Shown: positions 3,596 through 37,784 of the stretch, one piece after another
How the letters are laid out: each line of letters opens with the position of its first letter
Position numbering within the stretch: the first letter of the stretch is position 1
Made by a program: the position numbers and the translations under genes
IMG/VR virus record: IMGVR_UViG_2529292883_000004
Span: 1 to 37,784 of that record
Length of the DNA stretch: 37,784 nt
Source of the DNA: a virus
Lineage: Duplodnaviria; Heunggongvirae; Uroviricota; Caudoviricetes
Reading direction: 5' to 3' (one strand)
Notes under the pieces: model-generated
What the model was told of the DNA's origin: nothing
What the model saw: only the letters and a program-made list of their open reading frames with translations
Databases searched by the model: none

Positions 3596-6500
3596 TTAAA
3601 CCCAGACTGGATAACGCTCAGACAAGATGCTGAAATCGCTCAGGGATACGCAGTTATAAAACGCATCCGCGTAACTCGTCACGCCAGGCAACTTCTCAAT
3701 GAGCGCACATCCGCTTCCCTGCAATGACCGGCAGTTGTAAAAACAACGGTACACACTGGTTATTTGCGGGTACTCTTCCGCCGGGAGAATGTCATTCACA
3801 TCACTCTCCAGCCCTGTGCAACCGTAAAAGGTGCCCTCAAACGTCGTCGCACTGACGCACCCCGCAAACAAGCCGTCGCCCACAGTGGTCAGCCCCGTAC
3901 AACCGTTAAAGGTCTCTCTGAATGTTGTGACGCTGGCGAGTCCTGCAAACAGTCCGTCTGGTATCGTCATCAGCCCCGTGCAACCATCAAAGGTCTGATA
4001 GAACGATGTCACTCCGGTACAGTTTTCAAACAGCCCGGCAGGCAGCACCGCCAGCCCCGTACAGCCGTAAAAAGTCTGACTGAACGTGGTCACAGCAGTG
4101 TTGTTGTCAAACAACCCTTCCGGCAGTGTCTTCAGACCTGTACAGCCCCGGAACGTCCGGTAAAACGACGTCACACGGTTACAGTTATCAAACAATCCTG
4201 CAGGTAACATCGTCAGCCCCGTACAGCCGAAAAACGTATCCTGGAAAGACCCTGCGCTGACACAACGGTCAAATACCGCCTCAGGCACCGTCGTCAGGGC
4301 GGCACACCGGTAAAATGTCCGGTAGAAGGTTGTCACGCCGTGGCTGCTGTCAAACAGCCCTGCAGGTATTGCTGTCAGCTTCGTGCAGCCACTGAAAGTC
4401 TGATAGAACGACGTCACACCTGTACATCCGTCAAATACACTGTCTCCCAGCGTTGTCAGCTTCGTGCAGTCGTAAAATGTGCCTTCGAACGTCGATGCAC
4501 TGCTGCAGCCTGCAAACGCCCTTTCACCCACCGTTACCAGTTCCGTGCAGCCATAAAACGTCCGGAAGAAGGTCGTCACACGACTACAGTTTTCAAACAG
4601 CCCGGCAGGCAGCGCCTTCAGTCTCACACAGTCGCCAAAGGCATAACTGAACGTCGTCACAGAGACGCAGTTGTCAAACAGCCCTGCCGGTATCGCTGTC
4701 AGAGCCGTACAGCCATAAAAAGCACTACTGAACGTGGTCACGGCAGTGCAGCTGTCAAACATCCCTTCCGGCAATGCCGTCAGTCCCCTGCAGTTATAAA
4801 AAGCACTACTGAACGTCGTCACAGCAGTACAACCTGCAAACACTCCCTCTCCTATGGATGTCAGCCCCGTACAGCCGTAAAACGCCCGGTAGAACGTCGT
4901 AACACTGGTACATCCGGCAAACACGCCGTCTCCCACCGTTGTCAGCCCGGCACAACCATAAAAGGTGTCTTCAAACGTTGTGGCACTGACACAACCGGCA
5001 AACACATTGTCGCCCAGCGTTCTCAGCCCGGAACAACCGTAAAAGGTCCGCCTGAAGGTTGTCACACTTACACAGTCTGCAAACAATCCTGACGGTATCG
5101 CGGTCAGGCCCGTGCATTCGTAAAACGCCTCAAAGAAAGTGGTGACACTGGCGCTGTCAGCGAACAACCCTGCCGGTATCGTTGTCAGCCCCCGGCATCC
5201 CGAAAACACCCCCTCAAACGTCGTGGCACCGGTACAGTCTGCAAATAATCTGGCCGGTACCTCCGACAACCCGGTACATTCGCCAAAAGTCTTATAGAAA
5301 GACTTTGCTCCGGTACAACCGGAAAACAACTCTGCAGGAACTTCCGACAGACGGGTACAACGGTAAAATGTCGTATAGAACGTCGTGGCTCCGGTACAAT
5401 CTGCAAACAATTCCGGGGGGACCATTGCCAGTCCTGTACACCCCAAAAACGACCGGTAAAACGATCTGACACCCGAACAACCAGCAAACACGTCAGCCGG
5501 TATCGTGACCAGTCCGGTGCAACCTTCAAATAAGCTTGCGAATGTTGTGGTACCTGTACAACCAGCAAATACTCTGTCACCCACTGTTGTCAGTGCTCTG
5601 CACCCGTAAAACGCGCTGTCAAACGTCGTGACACTGGTGAGTTTTTCAAATAACCCTGCCGGTATCGTTACCAGCCCCGAGCATCCCGAAAACCCCCCCT
5701 CAAACGTCGCAACCTCTGTGCAGTTTGCGAACAATTTTGCCGGTATCGCTGTCAGGGCCGCGCAGCCATAAAACGTCCGGTTGAATGTCGTCACCCCGGT
5801 ACAACTGTCAAACAACCCTTCCGGTATTGCTGTCAGAGCCGTGCAGCCATAAAAGGCATTACTGAACGTGGTCACGGCAGTGCAGCTGTCAAACATCCCT
5901 TCCGGCAATGCCGTCAGTCCCCTGCAGTTATAAAAAGCCTGGAGGAATGTCGTCACCCCGGTGCAGTCTGCAAATATCCCCTGACCTAATGATGTCAGCG
6001 CCTGGCAGCCATAAAAGGCCTGCAAAAACGTTGTGGCACTGGCACATCCGGCAAACACGCTGTTACCCACCGTGCTCAGTTCCCTGCAGTTATAAAAGAC
6101 CCTGTAAAATGTTGTCGCACTGGTGCACCCGGCAAACACATGGTCCCCCACGGCGCTCAGTCCGGTACAACCATAAAAGGTATCCTCAAACGTCGTGGCA
6201 CCGGTGCACCCGGCAAACACGCTCTCACCCACCGCTCTCAGCCCGGTACAGCCGTAAAACGCCTGACGAAAAGTCGTTACGCCTGTGCAGCCGGCAAACG
6301 CGCTGTCACCGACTGCAGTGAGTCCCGTACATTCGTAAAATGCCTGATAGAACGTCGTGGCGCTGGCGCACTCAGCAAACAGCCCCGGAGGTATCGCAGT
6401 CAGTCCTTTACACCGGTAAAATGCACTGTCGAATGCCGTAGCGTTTTTGCAAAAACGGAATGCGCCGCTGTCAATACTCACCAGACTGGGGGTATTACTC

Positions 6501-30487: not shown

Positions 30488-30562
<75 letters not shown>

Positions 30563-30565
30563 ATA

Positions 30566-30641
<76 letters not shown>

Positions 30642-30806
30642 ATTGGTTCCTCAGGTGTGGATGAGATGCCCGGATACATAAATTACCCTCCCTTGGAACC
30701 GACGAAGAATAATAATGAATTCCGCTCCTGTTTCAATACAAACAATGTCAGGTATTTAAAACATAATTATACAATATTATAAAAATTAAAAAGTTCGCAA
30801 AAAAAG

Positions 30807-31853
30807 TTAACTATTATTTCTTATTTCATCAACCGTTTGATTAAACCTGTCCGTTTCCAGCTCTACACCAATAGCTCTACGTTCCAGAGAGAGCGCAGCC
30901 TTTATAGTCGCCCCCGATCCCATAAAAAAGTCTGCAACCAGTTCCCCCGGACGACTGCTGGCTGTAATTATCTGCCGCAACATATCTGCTGGCTTCTCAC
31001 ACGGATGTTTACCCGGATAATACTGCACAGGTTTGTGCGTCCAGACATCCGTATAAGGAACGGCAGCTGATACGGAAAAATAACGCCGCAAAGATTTATA
31101 CTCTTCCAGCAGGCTGACATATTGCCGGTTCAGTTCGCTGTATGTGCTGACCAGATGGTGGTGTGGCTTTTCCAGTTCTCCGCGTTGATGTTTTTCTGCT
31201 GCAACACGCACAAACAACGCCTGAAGCTTTCTGTAATCAGCTTCGTTCGGTAACTGCCACTGGCTGGCACCAAACCAGTGCGAAGCCATGTTTTTCTTTC
31301 CGGTAGCTTCCGCTATCTGTTTCGGCGTTATTCCCAGTGATTCACGCGCATCACGAAAGTAAGAAATCAGCGGGGCCATGACATGCTGTTTTAGCTCGCG
31401 CCCCTTTGCCGCATAGCCGTCATTTTTGGGCTGGTATGGCCCCTGATAATGTTCTGCAAACAGAATGCGTTCTGTTGCAGGGAAATACGCCCGCAGGCTT
31501 TCCTTGTTGCATCCGTTCCAGCGTCCGGACGGCTTCGCCCAGATAATGTGGTTCAGCACATTAAAGCGTTCACGCATCATGATTTCGATATCAGATGCCA
31601 GACGATGACCACAGAACAGGTAGAGACTTCCGGCAGGTTTCAGTACCCGCCAGAATTGCGTCAGACACTGATCCAGCCATTTCAGGTAATCATCGTCGCC
31701 CTTCCACTGGTTATCCCAGCCCTGGGGCTTCACTTTAAAGTATGGCGGGTCTGTGACTATCAGATCGACAGAATTTTCCGGTAAGGTCTGGATAAATTCC
31801 AGGCAATCAGCGTTGATTAACTCACAACTGGATATTTTTACAGTATTAGCCAT
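30807..31853 (-). CDS. Orphan DNA N6-adenine methyltransferase (beta-class, DPPY motif first)
   Basis: 348 aa. Motif IV (LIVTDPPYF) is near the N-terminus and an FxGxG SAM-binding motif (ADFFMGSGAT) near the C-terminus. No adjacent restriction endonuclease gene. Confidence 0.8.
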   Translation of the reverse strand: MANTVKISSCELINADCLEFIQTLPENSVDLIVTDPPYFKVKPQGWDNQWKGDDDYLKWLDQCLTQFWRVLKPAGSLYLFCGHRLASDIEIMMRERFNVLNHIIWAKPSGRWNGCNKESLRAYFPATERILFAEHYQGPYQPKNDGYAAKGRELKQHVMAPLISYFRDARESLGITPKQIAEATGKKNMASHWFGASQWQLPNEADYRKLQALFVRVAAEKHQRGELEKPHHHLVSTYSELNRQYVSLLEEYKSLRRYFSVSAAVPYTDVWTHKPVQYYPGKHPCEKPADMLRQIITASSRPGELVADFFMGSGATIKAALSLERRAIGVELETDRFNQTVDEIRNNS

Positions 31854-32988: not shown

Positions 32989-33146
32989 AATGACACCCTC
33001 TGATGGTTTCTTAATAACTCACCACCGACGACGCCAATCGTCTGGTGGTGAACTGTGCAGGGTTGGCGTAACCGGGAAACCGACCGGCGCGGATCTCTCC
33101 GCCCCCACACAGCCCACCATAATTCAGATGTGCGCGTGCATACGAC

Positions 33147-33172
33147 AATAAAAAACACGCTCGCGGCGTGTA
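33147..33172 (-). terminator. tR'-like rho-independent terminator just downstream of the late promoter
   Basis: Minus strand acacgc-cgcga-gcgtgt followed by tttttatt, about 60-70 nt downstream of the candidate pR'. Confidence 0.55.
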
Positions 33173-33231
33173 TCTGTCGCGGTCTCTATCCAGGACGCCA
33201 ATCCCGACGCCAGATTTTGCTGGCGCGTGAG

Positions 33232-33262
33232 GAATATAGCCCCGGACAATGTGTCTGGTCAA
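33232..33262 (-). promoter_or_regulatory. Candidate late promoter pR' (with presumed Q-utilisation region) directly after Q
   Basis: Minus strand TTGACC (plus 33257..33262), 18-19 nt spacer, TATATT (plus 33232..33237), beginning 5 nt after the Q stop codon. Confidence 0.45.
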
Positions 33263-35426: not shown

Positions 35427-35454
35427 GAAAAAACAAAACCCGCCGAAGCGGGTT
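35427..35454 (-). terminator. Rho-independent terminator after the HTH/ImmA gene
   Basis: Minus strand aacccgc-ttcg-gcgggtt followed by ttttgtttttt, 5 nt after the stop codon. The 21-nt core aaaacccgccgaagcgggtta is identical to the copy at 37270..37290. Confidence 0.7.
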
Positions 35455-35458
35455 ATGC

Positions 35459-36580
35459 CTAGTGAATTTTGCCTCTAAGAGTTCGGTAAGATTGTAGTGA
35501 AACAACATCACCACTTCCTGGCAGTTCATGAACCGCAGGAAGATCATCTCCTACTAACTCATAAAAAATGTCCACTTCTATATCCATTTCATCAGCTATA
35601 CGCTGTGGGTCGTATCCTAACTCTTCAAATAAAAACGATAAAGCCCGACGGAATAACTCAGGACGCTCATGAGGGATTAGATAATCTTCTTTTTCATCAA
35701 TAGCTTCCCCTTTCCGTTTCAACCCCATAAATGCAGTTCTGTACTGCTCATCAGTCAAAAGTCCTAATTGATGAGCCCTGTAAACAATGGCAGCCTTACT
35801 TACTTTCCATGTCAACTTAAATTGGCTTAGTCCCTGCCAATTTATCCTCCCCCCCACAGGTCTTGGAAAATATTTCGCCATCGACGTTCTGGGAAGCAAC
35901 AGAGCAGAGGCAAAGCGGTTTGCCTGGGATTCAGTTAATCTATCCCCAGTAGAAATTCCTTCATGAAGAATCAAATGGGCAACCTCATGAGCAATATCAA
36001 AGCGTTGCCTACAAGGTGAATTTTTAGCTGTATTTCGAACAATAAAAGGCCTTCGTAGAGGAACAGACAGTGCATCTACTTCATCCGAAACGGAGTCAAA
36101 TGAAGTAACAAACGCCCCAAGTTTCTCGGCAAGGCGAGTCATATTTTCAATTGGGCCAAAGCCTAAGCCCCACTCAATACGACATTTTTCTGCCGCTCGC
36201 TCGATATCTTCTTGTGTATGGACACGAAATTCAGGAAATCGAACAGGTGACAAATTAAGGTTATCTTCAAATACATCAATAAAACGACGATAAAACTCAG
36301 CCTTAGCGAGTGTTGATAGCTTCGTTGACATCCTTGTCGAGGCGCGTTTACGAAAATGTACAATCTCTTCATTAACAGGAGAATGTTCCTGCCCTTCGAA
36401 AAAGGCGGGCTTCACGCGCAAAACCTCGGCTAATTTATTTATAAGCTCTGGGGATGGAGTAGCTGAACCAGACTCCAGTCGCTGTACATACTGGCGTGTT
36501 TTTTCAACCTTCTCAGCAACCTGCTCCAGAGATAGCTCGTGATACAGACGAGCAAGTCTTAAATTAGTACCGTTAAACAC
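35459..36580 (-). CDS. Fused HTH-XRE DNA-binding domain + ImmA/IrrE-family (COG2856-like) zinc metallopeptidase
   Basis: 373 aa. N-terminus LRLARLYHELSLEQVAEKVEKTRQYVQRLESG is a typical XRE HTH. Central HEVAHLILH is an HExxH zinc-peptidase motif in an ImmA/IrrE-like context. Probable GTG start. AT-rich. Confidence 0.75.
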   Translation of the reverse strand: MFNGTNLRLARLYHELSLEQVAEKVEKTRQYVQRLESGSATPSPELINKLAEVLRVKPAFFEGQEHSPVNEEIVHFRKRASTRMSTKLSTLAKAEFYRRFIDVFEDNLNLSPVRFPEFRVHTQEDIERAAEKCRIEWGLGFGPIENMTRLAEKLGAFVTSFDSVSDEVDALSVPLRRPFIVRNTAKNSPCRQRFDIAHEVAHLILHEGISTGDRLTESQANRFASALLLPRTSMAKYFPRPVGGRINWQGLSQFKLTWKVSKAAIVYRAHQLGLLTDEQYRTAFMGLKRKGEAIDEKEDYLIPHERPELFRRALSFLFEELGYDPQRIADEMDIEVDIFYELVGDDLPAVHELPGSGDVVSLQSYRTLRGKIH

Positions 36581-36590
36581 ATTTCACCCA

Positions 36591-37184
36591 CTATTTGCTA
36601 TTTTGTTTCTTTTCCTTCTCAGTCTTAGACGCACTGATAGGTTCTAGTTCGATAGGTACCGGTGCTGGAGGTACATCATCGACAGAGTTCAGCATAACAA
36701 CACGGTCCGCACCATATGTCCAAGTTGACACGATCTCACCAAACACGTTATAGCCATTAAAAATGACTCTACCACCCTCGCCTTCAAATTCAGGCTTTTC
36801 AACCACAAAGCGATGCATAGTTGGAGTGGTCTCCTCTGACTCAAAGAGTCGATCAGCATCATTTCTTTTGAAAAAACCGCGTTTCTTGGGGTTATCTGCG
36901 TCATCAGTAAAGAAACGAATAGGGACATTCCCAATTGAAAACGTAAGATCCATGCCAGGATTAAGTAGTCTTAACCAGTCATATGTCTTTCGTATGCACA
37001 TTTGTAGCAACGCCTGCCGCTGACGCCCAAATGTACAACCACCACGAGTGTAATTATCATCATAGGGCGATGACAATAACTCATGAGTAATATCCTGTAT
37101 CCTGAGCAACTCCTCAGCTATAATGGTTAAACGATCCTCTGTTAACTCAGGAAAGAACTCCCAAGGGAATGGATGGTTCTGCAT
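36591..37184 (-). CDS. Hypothetical protein (unknown function), first gene of the two-gene module
   Basis: Start chosen at the ATG at 37184 (MQNHPFPWEFFPEL...) with a GGAG RBS 8 nt upstream; 197 aa. Its stop is 10 nt before the HTH/ImmA start. No recognisable motif. AT-rich. Confidence 0.6.
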   Translation of the reverse strand: MQNHPFPWEFFPELTEDRLTIIAEELLRIQDITHELLSSPYDDNYTRGGCTFGRQRQALLQMCIRKTYDWLRLLNPGMDLTFSIGNVPIRFFTDDADNPKKRGFFKRNDADRLFESEETTPTMHRFVVEKPEFEGEGGRVIFNGYNVFGEIVSTWTYGADRVVMLNSVDDVPPAPVPIELEPISASKTEKEKKQNSK

Positions 37185-37227
37185 AGACACTTCTCCGCCT
37201 AATCCGTGCAAAAAACGACTTTTGTCA

Positions 37228-37264
37228 ACCAAGATATTGGTGCATATTCATAATTTTGTCAACC
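37228..37264 (-). promoter_or_regulatory. Candidate promoter/operator of the two-gene module
   Basis: Minus strand TTGACA, 17 nt spacer, CAATAT. Two direct copies of GGTTGACAA about 34 bp apart (plus ttgtcaacc at 37222..37230 and 37256..37264) are candidate operator half-sites. Confidence 0.4.
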
Positions 37265-37265
37265 A

Positions 37266-37289
37266 ATAAAAAACCCGCCGAAGCGGGTT
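37266..37289 (-). terminator. Rho-independent terminator insulating the module from upstream (IS-side) transcription
   Basis: Minus strand aacccgc-ttcg-gcgggtt followed by tttttt; same 21-nt core as the terminator at 35427..35454. Confidence 0.65.
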
Positions 37290-37345
37290 AAGTGCGGGTG
37301 CGTTGAGGATGCCTGACACATCAGAGGTGGCGAGGGATTTCTCCC

Positions 37346-37784
37346 CATAAGCGCTAACTTAAGGGTTGTGGTATTACGCCTGATATGATTTAACGTGCCG
37401 ATGAATTACTCTCACGATAACTGGTCAGCAATTCTGGCCCATATTGGTAAGCCCGAAGAACTGGATACTTCGGCACGTAATGCCGGGGCTCTAACCCGCC
37501 GCCGCGAAATTCGTGATGCTGCAACTCTGCTACGTCTGGGGCTGGCTTACGGCCCCGGGGGGATGTCATTACGTGAAGTCACTGCATGGGCTCAGCTCCA
37601 TGACGTTGCAACATTATCTGACGTGGCTCTCCTGAAGCGGCTGCGGAATGCCGCCGACTGGTTTGGCATACTTGCCGCACAAACACTTGCTGTACGCGCC
37701 GCAGTTACGGGTTGTACAAGCGGAAAGAGATTGCGTCTTGTCGATGGAACAGCAATCAGTGCGCCCGGGGGCGGCGAGCGCTGA
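37346..37784 (+). mobile_element. IS186 (IS4 family) left end, partial - runs off the window
   Basis: Sequence cataagcgctaacttaagggttg at 37346..37368 is recalled as the IS186 terminal inverted repeat. The downstream ORF matches the IS186 transposase N-terminus as recalled. Confidence 0.7.
37401..37784 (+). CDS. IS186 transposase (InsL-like), N-terminal part
   Basis: ATG at 37401 gives MNYSHDNWSAILAHIGKPEELDTSARNAGALTRRREIRDAATLLRLGLAYGPGG...LRLVDGTAISAPGG. An in-frame TGA coincides with the last 3 nt of the window, so the copy is either truncated/frameshifted or the residue-level recollection is imperfect. Confidence 0.7.
   Translation: MNYSHDNWSAILAHIGKPEELDTSARNAGALTRRREIRDAATLLRLGLAYGPGGMSLREVTAWAQLHDVATLSDVALLKRLRNAADWFGILAAQTLAVRAAVTGCTSGKRLRLVDGTAISAPGGGER

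Follow-up and report, generated by a model that had tools for sequence, protein, structure and literature searches.

The window, that is, the whole 37,784-nt (37.8-kb) stretch of DNA analysed, carries near its right-hand end two co-oriented minus-strand genes encoding proteins of 197 and 373 aa, as originally predicted. The first gene of the operon, rmrT (36591..37184, minus), encodes the 197-aa protein, assigned as a toxin from PADLOC, family alignments, kinship to Vmi480 and a published T46S suppressor, all described below. It is followed after a gap of 10 nt by rmrA (35459..36580, minus; GTG start at 36580), whose 373-aa product is assigned as antitoxin and repressor from Pfam, PADLOC and its identity to WP_000481765.1. 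Although the mechanical open reading frame of rmrT reaches back to a TTG at 37232, RefSeq and all homologues use the ATG at 37184, and a Shine-Dalgarno GGAG (37193..37196, minus), read from the sequence, lies 8 nt 5' of this ATG; GGAG or GAG is kept at this position among rmrT orthologues. Pfam placed HTH_3 at residues 7-61 and Peptidase_M78 at residues 151-269 of RmrA, with the metallopeptidase motif HEVAH at 198-202, confirming the predicted fusion of an XRE-HTH to an ImmA-type HExxH peptidase. The module is also more AT-rich than the phage backbone, as had been noticed: GC is 0.428 across 35456-37269 versus 0.546 (54.6%) for the window and 0.552 for positions 1-35434, which puts the module among the lowest 3.4% of equal-sized windows.

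The region upstream of rmrT has a conserved organization. Two minus-strand copies of TTGGTTGACAAAA are present (plus-strand positions 37220-37232 and 37254-37266); the duplicated sites originally reported are real. The same region holds two operator-like units of the form GTTGACAAA-N10-TGCAC, 34 bp apart; across seven orthologous promoters that were aligned, where the spacing is 33-34 bp, the cores do not vary. Unit 1 (37240..37263, minus) overlaps the putative promoter, and unit 2 (37206..37229, minus) falls downstream of the putative transcription start, ahead of the ribosome-binding site; these two are the only exact matches to the motif in the 37.8-kb window. The candidate TTGACA promoter fared less evenly. 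By eye, a perfect -35 TTGACA (37262-37257) is followed by a 17-nt spacer and a -10-like CAATAT (37239-37234), but CAATAT agrees with TATAAT at three of six positions and a consensus promoter scan called no promoter upstream of rmrT. Because the element is conserved, we keep it as a putative promoter with a perfect -35 and a weak -10. We infer from the sequence that RmrA regulates its own operon through the two operator-like sites; the two-operator promoter is a new detail for this module and offers a concrete target for tests of RmrA autoregulation.

Two copies of the same 21-nt hairpin, AAAACCCGCCGAAGCGGGTTA, flank the gene pair at 35435-35455 and 37270-37290, in agreement with the original prediction. 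They are identical, and each was scored as an intrinsic terminator on the minus strand: a stem of 7 bp capped by a UUCG loop and trailed by a U run (-15.6 and -13.1 kcal/mol, respectively). The downstream copy (35435..35455, minus), with its stem at 35454-35437 followed by the U run (z -5.0), would end the rmrT-rmrA transcript 4 nt past the rmrA stop codon. The upstream copy (37270..37290, minus) marks the left boundary of a cargo slot and, in intact relatives, is the 3' terminator of the hokD transcript. Comparison of sites showed that the downstream hairpin is a copy of this slot-boundary hairpin, duplicated solely in occupied slots: the empty site (L002) has a single copy, hokD lies directly beyond the hairpin in three loci (L001, L002 and L003), and empty, RosmerTA-occupied and otherwise occupied sites have exact boundaries in common. 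Among 5426 E. coli genomes, the hokD-side slot was empty in 2131, occupied by RosmerTA in 23 and occupied by another HTH+ImmA pair in 49. That the hokD terminator hairpin bounds a cargo-exchange slot, at a junction present in roughly 40% of the complete E. coli genomes, is a second new detail of this analysis. With its low GC, its own promoter-like regulatory region and terminator, and its presence/absence polymorphism at a fixed prophage site, the module is a self-contained moron, as had been proposed, carried by a lambdoid prophage at its hokD / DUF968 slot in the nin region. The adjoining insertion sequence is likewise real but is a neighbour and not part of the module. Its left end (37346..37784, plus), of the IS186/IS421-type IS4 family, runs off the window; from about 37346 it matches RefSeq elements annotated as 'IS4-like element IS421 family transposase' (IS186/IS421 group), and the insertion point lies 55 nt past the hairpin, within the 3' region of hokD. 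The module-plus-IS junction was found in no complete E. coli genome of the collection.

Profile searches indicate that the two-gene block, with rmrT ahead of rmrA, is very probably a RosmerTA toxin-antitoxin module. In PADLOC, the 197-aa protein matched RmrT model PDLC03929 (E 8.8e-93, 1-197/198) and the 373-aa protein matched RmrA model PDLC03943 (E 4.3e-201, 1-368/370) together with 13 more RmrA models; capP (2.8e-17) and capH (5e-10) models were matched by RmrA as well. The NCBIfam spr1629 antitoxin model hit RmrA at 4e-51 and 174 bits, against an NCBIfam cut-off of 335 bits. All 52 diverse relatives of the 197-aa protein, with identity down to 21%, matched PDLC03929. The layout is also that of RosmerTA: an RmrA within the ~360-400 aa range, with an N-terminal XRE HTH and an ImmA/IrrE (M78, HEXXH) Zn-peptidase, next to a co-oriented gene on the same strand, across the 10-nt gap, that matches the RmrT model. 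Pfam and NCBIfam returned nothing for the 197-aa protein, even when 41 family members were searched at E<=10, so the earlier description of a protein with no recognisable domain holds for these two databases, but it does not hold for PADLOC (RmrT) or PHROGs (phrog_5786). Contrary to the earlier suggestion, the module is not novel, because both proteins match PADLOC models end to end and RmrA is identical to WP_000481765.1, the published accession of an antitoxin from E. coli E101; PADLOC or DefenseFinder would label the pair RosmerTA. The proposal of an immunity or abortive-infection cassette survives without its novelty, since the family is classed as toxin-antitoxin/abortive-infection phage defence.

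A genetic dissection of the same module has in fact already been published for E. coli E101 (Rousset et al., bioRxiv 10.1101/2020.05.25.114553; Nat Microbiol 2021). In that strain clpP is essential owing to a prophage toxin-antitoxin module, E101_02645/E101_02644; moving the module to K-12 makes clpP essential there too, CRISPRi of the toxin restores growth, and a T46S substitution in the toxin is a suppressor (10.1101/2020.05.25.114553). RmrA of the window is 100% identical to WP_000481765.1 (the UMNF18 protein), the accession under which E101_02644 is listed. For the toxin, the alleles encountered here, WP_001179381 and WP_001179382, are next in number to WP_001179380.1, which is E101_02645. 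From the adjacent accessions, the identical partner and the like identities to the Vibrio mimicus pair Vmi480/Vmi470 (33/42% published, 31/41% measured here against an orthologue), rather than from a residue comparison, our toxin allele is putatively identified with E101_02645. Both modules are prophage-borne and toxin-first, and T46 is present in the RmrT of the window; an IS186/IS421 element beside the module distinguishes the window. T46 falls within the conserved RmrT motif D42-D-N-Y-T46-R-G48 in family alignments. The E101 link came from the lambdoid alleles; E. coli homologues in the P2 hotspot (P0046 type) were considered as the E101 toxin and set aside, as they carry WP_097445532.1 and WP_061357490.1 instead. 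For the fold of the toxin, hmmsearch of PDB sequences with the toxin family profile gave no match and structure comparison gave weak restriction-endonuclease-like matches only; a PD-(D/E)XK nuclease fold was rejected because the catalytic acidic/lysine pattern is not conserved in the family.

A more distant relative supports the toxin and antitoxin assignments. Vmi480/Vmi470, on the mobilisable genomic island MGIVmi1 of V. mimicus (PMC4671572), belong to the same toxin and antitoxin families; measured against an orthologous locus, identity was 31% for the toxin (Vmi480 orthologue P0259) and 41% for the antitoxin. Both pairs are toxin-first and of similar size (198/362 aa versus 197/373 aa here), with a gap of 5 nt versus 10 nt, and upstream of the Vmi480-like locus the two-unit operator layout recurs in degenerate form. 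The sequences are distant, and the element is a genomic island rather than a prophage. Vmi480 alone is lethal and is neutralised by co-expressed Vmi470 (PMC4671572, Luo et al. 2015), and the vmi470 antitoxin gene could not be deleted alone (PMC4671572). The link between vmi480 and RosmerTA was made via published primers; in the Millman supplementary tables, no entry for Vibrio mimicus VM573 or for ETEC connects the two. One toxin family, PDLC03929, thereby joins three hitherto unconnected threads of the literature: the essentiality of clpP in E101, the Vibrio vmi480 counter-selection toxin, and RosmerTA.

The gene pair moves as a unit. Among the sampled loci, 11 had downstream sequence that could be read, and in these the gene 5-23 nt after the RmrT-like one encodes a 360-387-aa HTH_3+Peptidase_M78 protein. 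The loci belong to lambdoid and P2-like prophages, to genomic islands and to metagenomic contigs. A tblastn search of isolated phage genomes with the toxin turned up no true phage that carries it. This mobility bears on whether the HTH-peptidase could instead be a derepression switch of the ImmR/ImmA type that regulates prophage genes, with the 197-aa protein as a regulatory partner and no toxin involved. ImmR/ImmA (ICEBs1), DdrO/IrrE (Deinococcus) and CapH/CapP (CBASS) do combine an XRE HTH repressor with a signal-responsive COG2856/M78 metallopeptidase, RmrA has the same architecture and matches the capP and capH models, and another cargo at the hokD slot is a separate HTH + ImmA pair. In those systems, however, the two activities are separate proteins that control other genes, whereas in RmrA they are fused and paired with a toxin. 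Control of host-element genes from operators located there was not seen, as the operator motif is confined to the module's own promoter in the 37.8-kb window; 2131 E. coli genomes have the same prophage junction without the pair, which otherwise travels among lambdoid and P2-like prophages, genomic islands and plasmids; and genetics identifies the upstream gene as the one that is toxic. We consider such a switch highly improbable, and the related suggestion of a prophage repressor/anti-repressor pair of this phage type fails on the same confinement of the motif and movement of the pair between unrelated elements.

Within RosmerTA, phage protection has been demonstrated for systems with other toxins. 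E. coli OLC-716 RosmerTA protects against phage, and its delta-rmrA mutant is not transformable (Millman et al. 2022). This system is likewise a two-gene, toxin-first operon carrying the RosmerTA label in PADLOC and DefenseFinder, and its RmrA (~370 aa, XRE HTH + M78 peptidase) shares 31% identity over 311 aa with ours (E 2e-38), but its RmrT of 239 aa is unrelated in sequence to the 197-aa toxin here. Homology between the two toxins was rejected (BLASTP E 7; hhalign probability 0.4%), although toxin homology is no requirement of the RosmerTA definition, which pools several toxin families. RmrTA of Gordonia phage Kita, whose toxin also differs from ours, defends against Bas54 and Bas59 according to the text of the report, with Bas60 in place of Bas59 in its Fig. 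5 legend. Because OLC-716 RmrT shows no detectable homology to RmrT of the window, the defence label of our module rests on the common RmrA and the family definition; a literature search found no report of anti-phage activity for the PDLC03929 RmrT subtype.

Given this, the pair might serve addiction only, securing retention of the prophage or cassette by post-segregational killing and having no role against other phages. This would fit the phenotypes shown for the toxin family, which are limited to toxicity, its neutralisation and synthetic lethality with clpP, as well as the presence next door of hokD, an addiction-type toxin in its own right, and the location of Vmi480/470 on a mobilisable genomic island. 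Genomic context argues the other way: relatives occupy recognised defence hotspots, including the P2-like slot that gpA and the portal gene delimit in E. coli, Serratia and Proteus, the neighbourhood of an HNH/methylase/giant-helicase cluster in Aeromonas, and, for the Vmi480-like locus, a site adjoining AAA + reverse-transcriptase genes, and the OLC-716 and Kita systems do protect against phage. We regard addiction as the sole function as unlikely, and the two roles are not mutually exclusive.

Dependence on ClpX(P) recurs in this kind of module, having been described for S. pneumoniae RipAB (Spr1630/Spr1629) and in Pectobacteriaceae. RipA/RipB is a Rosmer-type pair with an HTH-ImmA antitoxin. 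RipA targets DnaN and triggers competence upon ClpX depletion (10.1101/2025.09.02.673660); it is restrained by ClpX, in mirror image of classical type II systems (10.1101/2025.09.02.673660). In classical type II toxin-antitoxin systems Lon or Clp degrades a labile antitoxin, so that the protease activates the toxin, whereas loss of ClpP or ClpX unleashes toxins of the present kind in the literature, so the protease logic is inverted. The DnaN target and the competence output belong to RipA and are not established for RmrT. By analogy, the module might be a RipAB-like sentinel that reports the state of ClpXP or DNA replication and releases toxin under proteotoxic or replication stress, to the benefit of the population and independently of phage. 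The behaviour of RipA and the activation of the E. coli module by clpP depletion speak for such a sensor, but E. coli is without a comparable competence circuit, and the location in a prophage moron and the defence-hotspot contexts of relatives point to phage conflict, which makes a phage-independent stress role very unlikely in our judgement.

Returning to RosmerTA as a defence module, these data allow a working model. Transcription of rmrT-rmrA would start from the TTGACA-N17-CAATAT promoter just 3' of the hokD terminator and stop at the second hairpin, and RmrA would bind the two conserved 24-bp sites, one overlapping the promoter and the other in the 5' leader, to repress its own operon. 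Published work on the module or on homologues makes RmrT the toxic component and RmrA the antidote, and shows that ClpP depletion unleashes toxicity, which T46S, in the most conserved RmrT motif, abolishes (10.1101/2020.05.25.114553). RmrA and ClpXP would together hold RmrT inactive, via sequestration and/or proteolysis, until certain phage infections upset this control, freeing RmrT to arrest the cell by abortive infection. The RmrA peptidase could respond to a signal, as in ImmA/ImmR, IrrE/DdrO and CapP/CapH, or the trigger could be interference with ClpXP or host transcription. A possible though doubtful extension is that the module guards ClpXP itself: RmrA would mark or retain RmrT so that it is removed continuously in a ClpXP-dependent manner, and phages would release the toxin by inhibiting, saturating or hijacking ClpXP or by triggering the RmrA metallopeptidase. 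If so, RosmerTA would sense the integrity of a host protease, unlike a conventional labile-antitoxin system, and the target of RmrT might be a component of the replisome, as for RipA.

The AT-rich block consists of two ORFs on the minus strand, rmrT (197 aa, ATG 37184 to 36591) and rmrA (373 aa, GTG 36580 to 35459), which share one orientation, are separated by 10 nt and are annotated as the same two genes in the RefSeq entries of related genomes, confirming the two-gene module of the original prediction. The GC content of the block is 42.8% against 54.6% for the window and ranks within the lowest 3.4% of windows of equal size, bearing out the proposed AT-richness. Pfam search assigned HTH_3 and Peptidase_M78 domains to the 373-aa protein and gave no match for the 197-aa protein, as expected from the suggestion that the latter has no recognisable domain. 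However, PADLOC matched it end to end to RmrT (PDLC03929, E 8.8e-93, 1-197/198), as it did the 373-aa protein to RmrA (PDLC03943, E 4.3e-201, 1-368/370), and PHROGs holds families for both. The module is a RosmerTA system, a name given by Millman et al. 2022. RmrT family members are stand-alone proteins of ~200 aa forming 429 clusters at 50% identity, every one annotated hypothetical, and all 52 aligned diverse members, with identity down to 21%, matched the same PADLOC RmrT model. At the 11 sampled loci where the sequence downstream could be read, a 360-387-aa HTH_3+Peptidase_M78 gene comes directly after the toxin gene. The pairing is kept in lambdoid prophages (E. coli, Phytobacter), in P2-like prophages at the gpA/portal slot (E. 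coli, Serratia, Proteus), on an Aeromonas island beside genes for HNH, methylase and giant-helicase proteins, on an integrase island and on metagenomic contigs. RosmerTA of the PDLC03929 subtype tends to lie among other defence-like genes.

Although the cassette had been proposed as novel, it is already known, both as the RosmerTA family and as the E101 clpP-essentiality toxin-antitoxin pair. Rousset et al. (10.1101/2020.05.25.114553) found that the strain-specific need of E. coli E101 for clpP stems from a prophage-borne toxin, E101_02645 (WP_001179380.1), and its antidote, E101_02644 (WP_000481765.1); this pair rendered clpP essential in E101 and, once transferred, in K-12 too, growth was restored by CRISPRi of the toxin, and the toxin substitution T46S suppressed the clpP effect. 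The window RmrA is 100% identical to a UMNF18 protein labelled WP_000481765.1 in RefSeq, the sister-genome toxin alleles (WP_001179381.1, WP_001179382.1) show 2 differences from that of the window, and our family alignments place T46 within the most conserved RmrT motif, D42-D-N-Y-T46-R-G48. In a second study, Vmi480 (198 aa) was lethal alone and was neutralised by Vmi470, a 362-aa protein with an HTH plus a Zn-peptidase (Luo et al., PMC4671572). The published vmi480/470 primers match a Vmi480-like locus (L023) in 30/36, 20/24 and 17/22 bases at homologous positions, and against the window RmrT and RmrA the toxin and antitoxin of this locus show identities of 31% (E 1e-25) and 41% (E 2e-83), mirroring the 33% and 42% given for the E101 pair against Vmi480/470 (Rousset et al., 10.1101/2020.05.25.114553). 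These two studies directly concern the window's own toxin family, unlike the OLC-716 system of E. coli verified by Millman, whose RmrA is related (31% identity) but whose toxin is unrelated to the window RmrT (BLASTP E 7; hhalign probability 0.4%). RmrT has been shown to be the toxic partner and RmrA the antidote, with toxicity appearing on ClpP depletion, and the module is plausibly a candidate abortive-infection cassette. Among Pectobacteriaceae, only RosmerTA-bearing strains require clpX. The S. pneumoniae Rosmer pair RipA/RipB (Spr1630/Spr1629) likewise makes clpX essential, the toxin targeting the DnaN clamp (10.1101/2025.09.02.673660); the window RmrA matched NCBIfam's model of the spr1629 antitoxin (4e-51), under the cut-off set for it. 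RmrA and ClpXP may jointly silence RmrT, and a signal-dependent proteolytic step during infection would be plausible by analogy with ImmA/ImmR, IrrE/DdrO and CapP/CapH (Makarova 2009); RmrA also matches the capP and capH models of PADLOC. In E. coli O6:H16 2011EL-1370-2 (L027:151-1271) and ETEC4090 (H22), two ORFs of 245 and 118 aa stand in place of a full-length rmrA, beside an intact rmrT of allele WP_001179382.1, which carries D17V and I64V when compared with the window; either a shortened antitoxin is enough or this toxin allele is attenuated.

Positions 35435-35455 and 37270-37290 hold the same 21 nt, AAAACCCGCCGAAGCGGGTTA. Read on the minus strand, each copy has a 7-bp GC-rich stem closed by a UUCG loop, with a U tract; the two were called as terminators, as the predicted bracketing required. 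In E. coli MB06231, the same prophage junction lacks the module and has one hairpin (L002:4038-4055) between hokD and the small gene beside DUF968, while in E. coli 2013C-4830 other cargo lies within the same boundaries, with the hairpin again in two copies (L003:4038-4055 and 5386-5403). Among 5426 complete E. coli genomes, the slot is empty, with an uninterrupted junction, in 2131, holds RosmerTA in 23 (mostly ETEC) and holds an alternative HTH + ImmA cargo in 49. RosmerTA loci carried by other types of element lack the hairpin, which is therefore a feature of the slot: it terminates hokD and marks the boundary for cassette exchange. In Qin/Rac-like lambdoid prophages this terminator is the exact slot boundary, single when empty and double when occupied, and at least two different cargos share it, RosmerTA and a separate HTH + ImmA/IrrE pair. 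The alternative cargo of 2013C-4830 (L003:4389-5227) pairs a 119-aa XRE HTH gene with a downstream gene for a 147-aa ImmA/IrrE peptidase and includes no obvious toxin; PADLOC gave a weak HTH_VI match only for the former and none for the latter. Just past hokD, MB06231 carries further defence-type cargo, a 626-aa 'ATP-dependent nuclease' (L002:5002-6882) that matches PADLOC Old (1.4e-55), AriA (5e-45) and numerous GajA models. The expected IS186 neighbour is present as the end of an IS186/IS421-type IS4 element (from about 37346 to 37784), inserted in the hokD 3' region 55 nt past the hairpin. In other E. coli genomes (H31-H34, matches beginning at window 37269), this junction holds an IS421-family element but no RosmerTA, which suggests a recurrent or inherited insertion site; module and IS together were not found in any complete E. 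coli genome of the collection.

Between the upstream hairpin and the rmrT start codon, TTGGTTGACAAAA occurs in two copies 34 bp apart, in line with the duplicated sites claimed. The duplicates noted as GGTTGACAA are in fact two 24-bp units, GTTGACAAA-N10-TGCAC, with no further exact match in the window: unit 1 (37263-37240) overlaps the -35 element and spacer, and unit 2 (37229-37206) falls after the likely transcription start and ahead of the GGAG ribosome-binding site. The putative rmrT promoter has the predicted perfect TTGACA (37262-37257), a 17-nt spacer and CAATAT, but a consensus scan called no promoter upstream of rmrT, and the promoter is the weakest element of the described block. 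An alignment of seven orthologous promoters, from loci with protein identities of only 42-86%, shows variable bases around a set of invariant cores, GTTGACA and GC in unit 1 and TTGACAAA and TGC in unit 2, with a unit spacing of 33-34 bp; L023 has a degenerate version of this layout. We read the units as putative RmrA operators for autorepression. Transcription of rmrT-rmrA would begin downstream of TTGACA-N17-CAATAT and stop at the hairpin at 35454-35437. The gene, GC, hairpin, repeat and IS findings agree, and the description of a self-contained moron was therefore accurate, the moron being real.

In the AlphaFold2 model of RmrT (pLDDT 82, pTM 0.74), six strands are combined with two long helices, and the C-terminal tail is disordered. 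At L023:5883-8600, the Vmi480-like module adjoins a resolvase and an AAA_15/AAA_21 ATPase plus a reverse-transcriptase gene, and at L017:4716-6725 a distinct HTH + Peptidase_M78 + Peptidase_C1 cluster, the second there, comes after a metagenomic RosmerTA locus. Elsewhere in the window, minus-strand Rfam matches at gathering score include two tRNAs (30491-30562 and 30569-30641), isrK (33150-33226) and a C4 antisense RNA (33041-33124), whose a1b1 target is at 33187-33239; another copy of C4 lies on the plus strand (605-688). The RNA matches lie upstream of the prophage's Q-like region, and a second low-GC patch (30600-31050, 0.38-0.41) is found around the tRNA genes.
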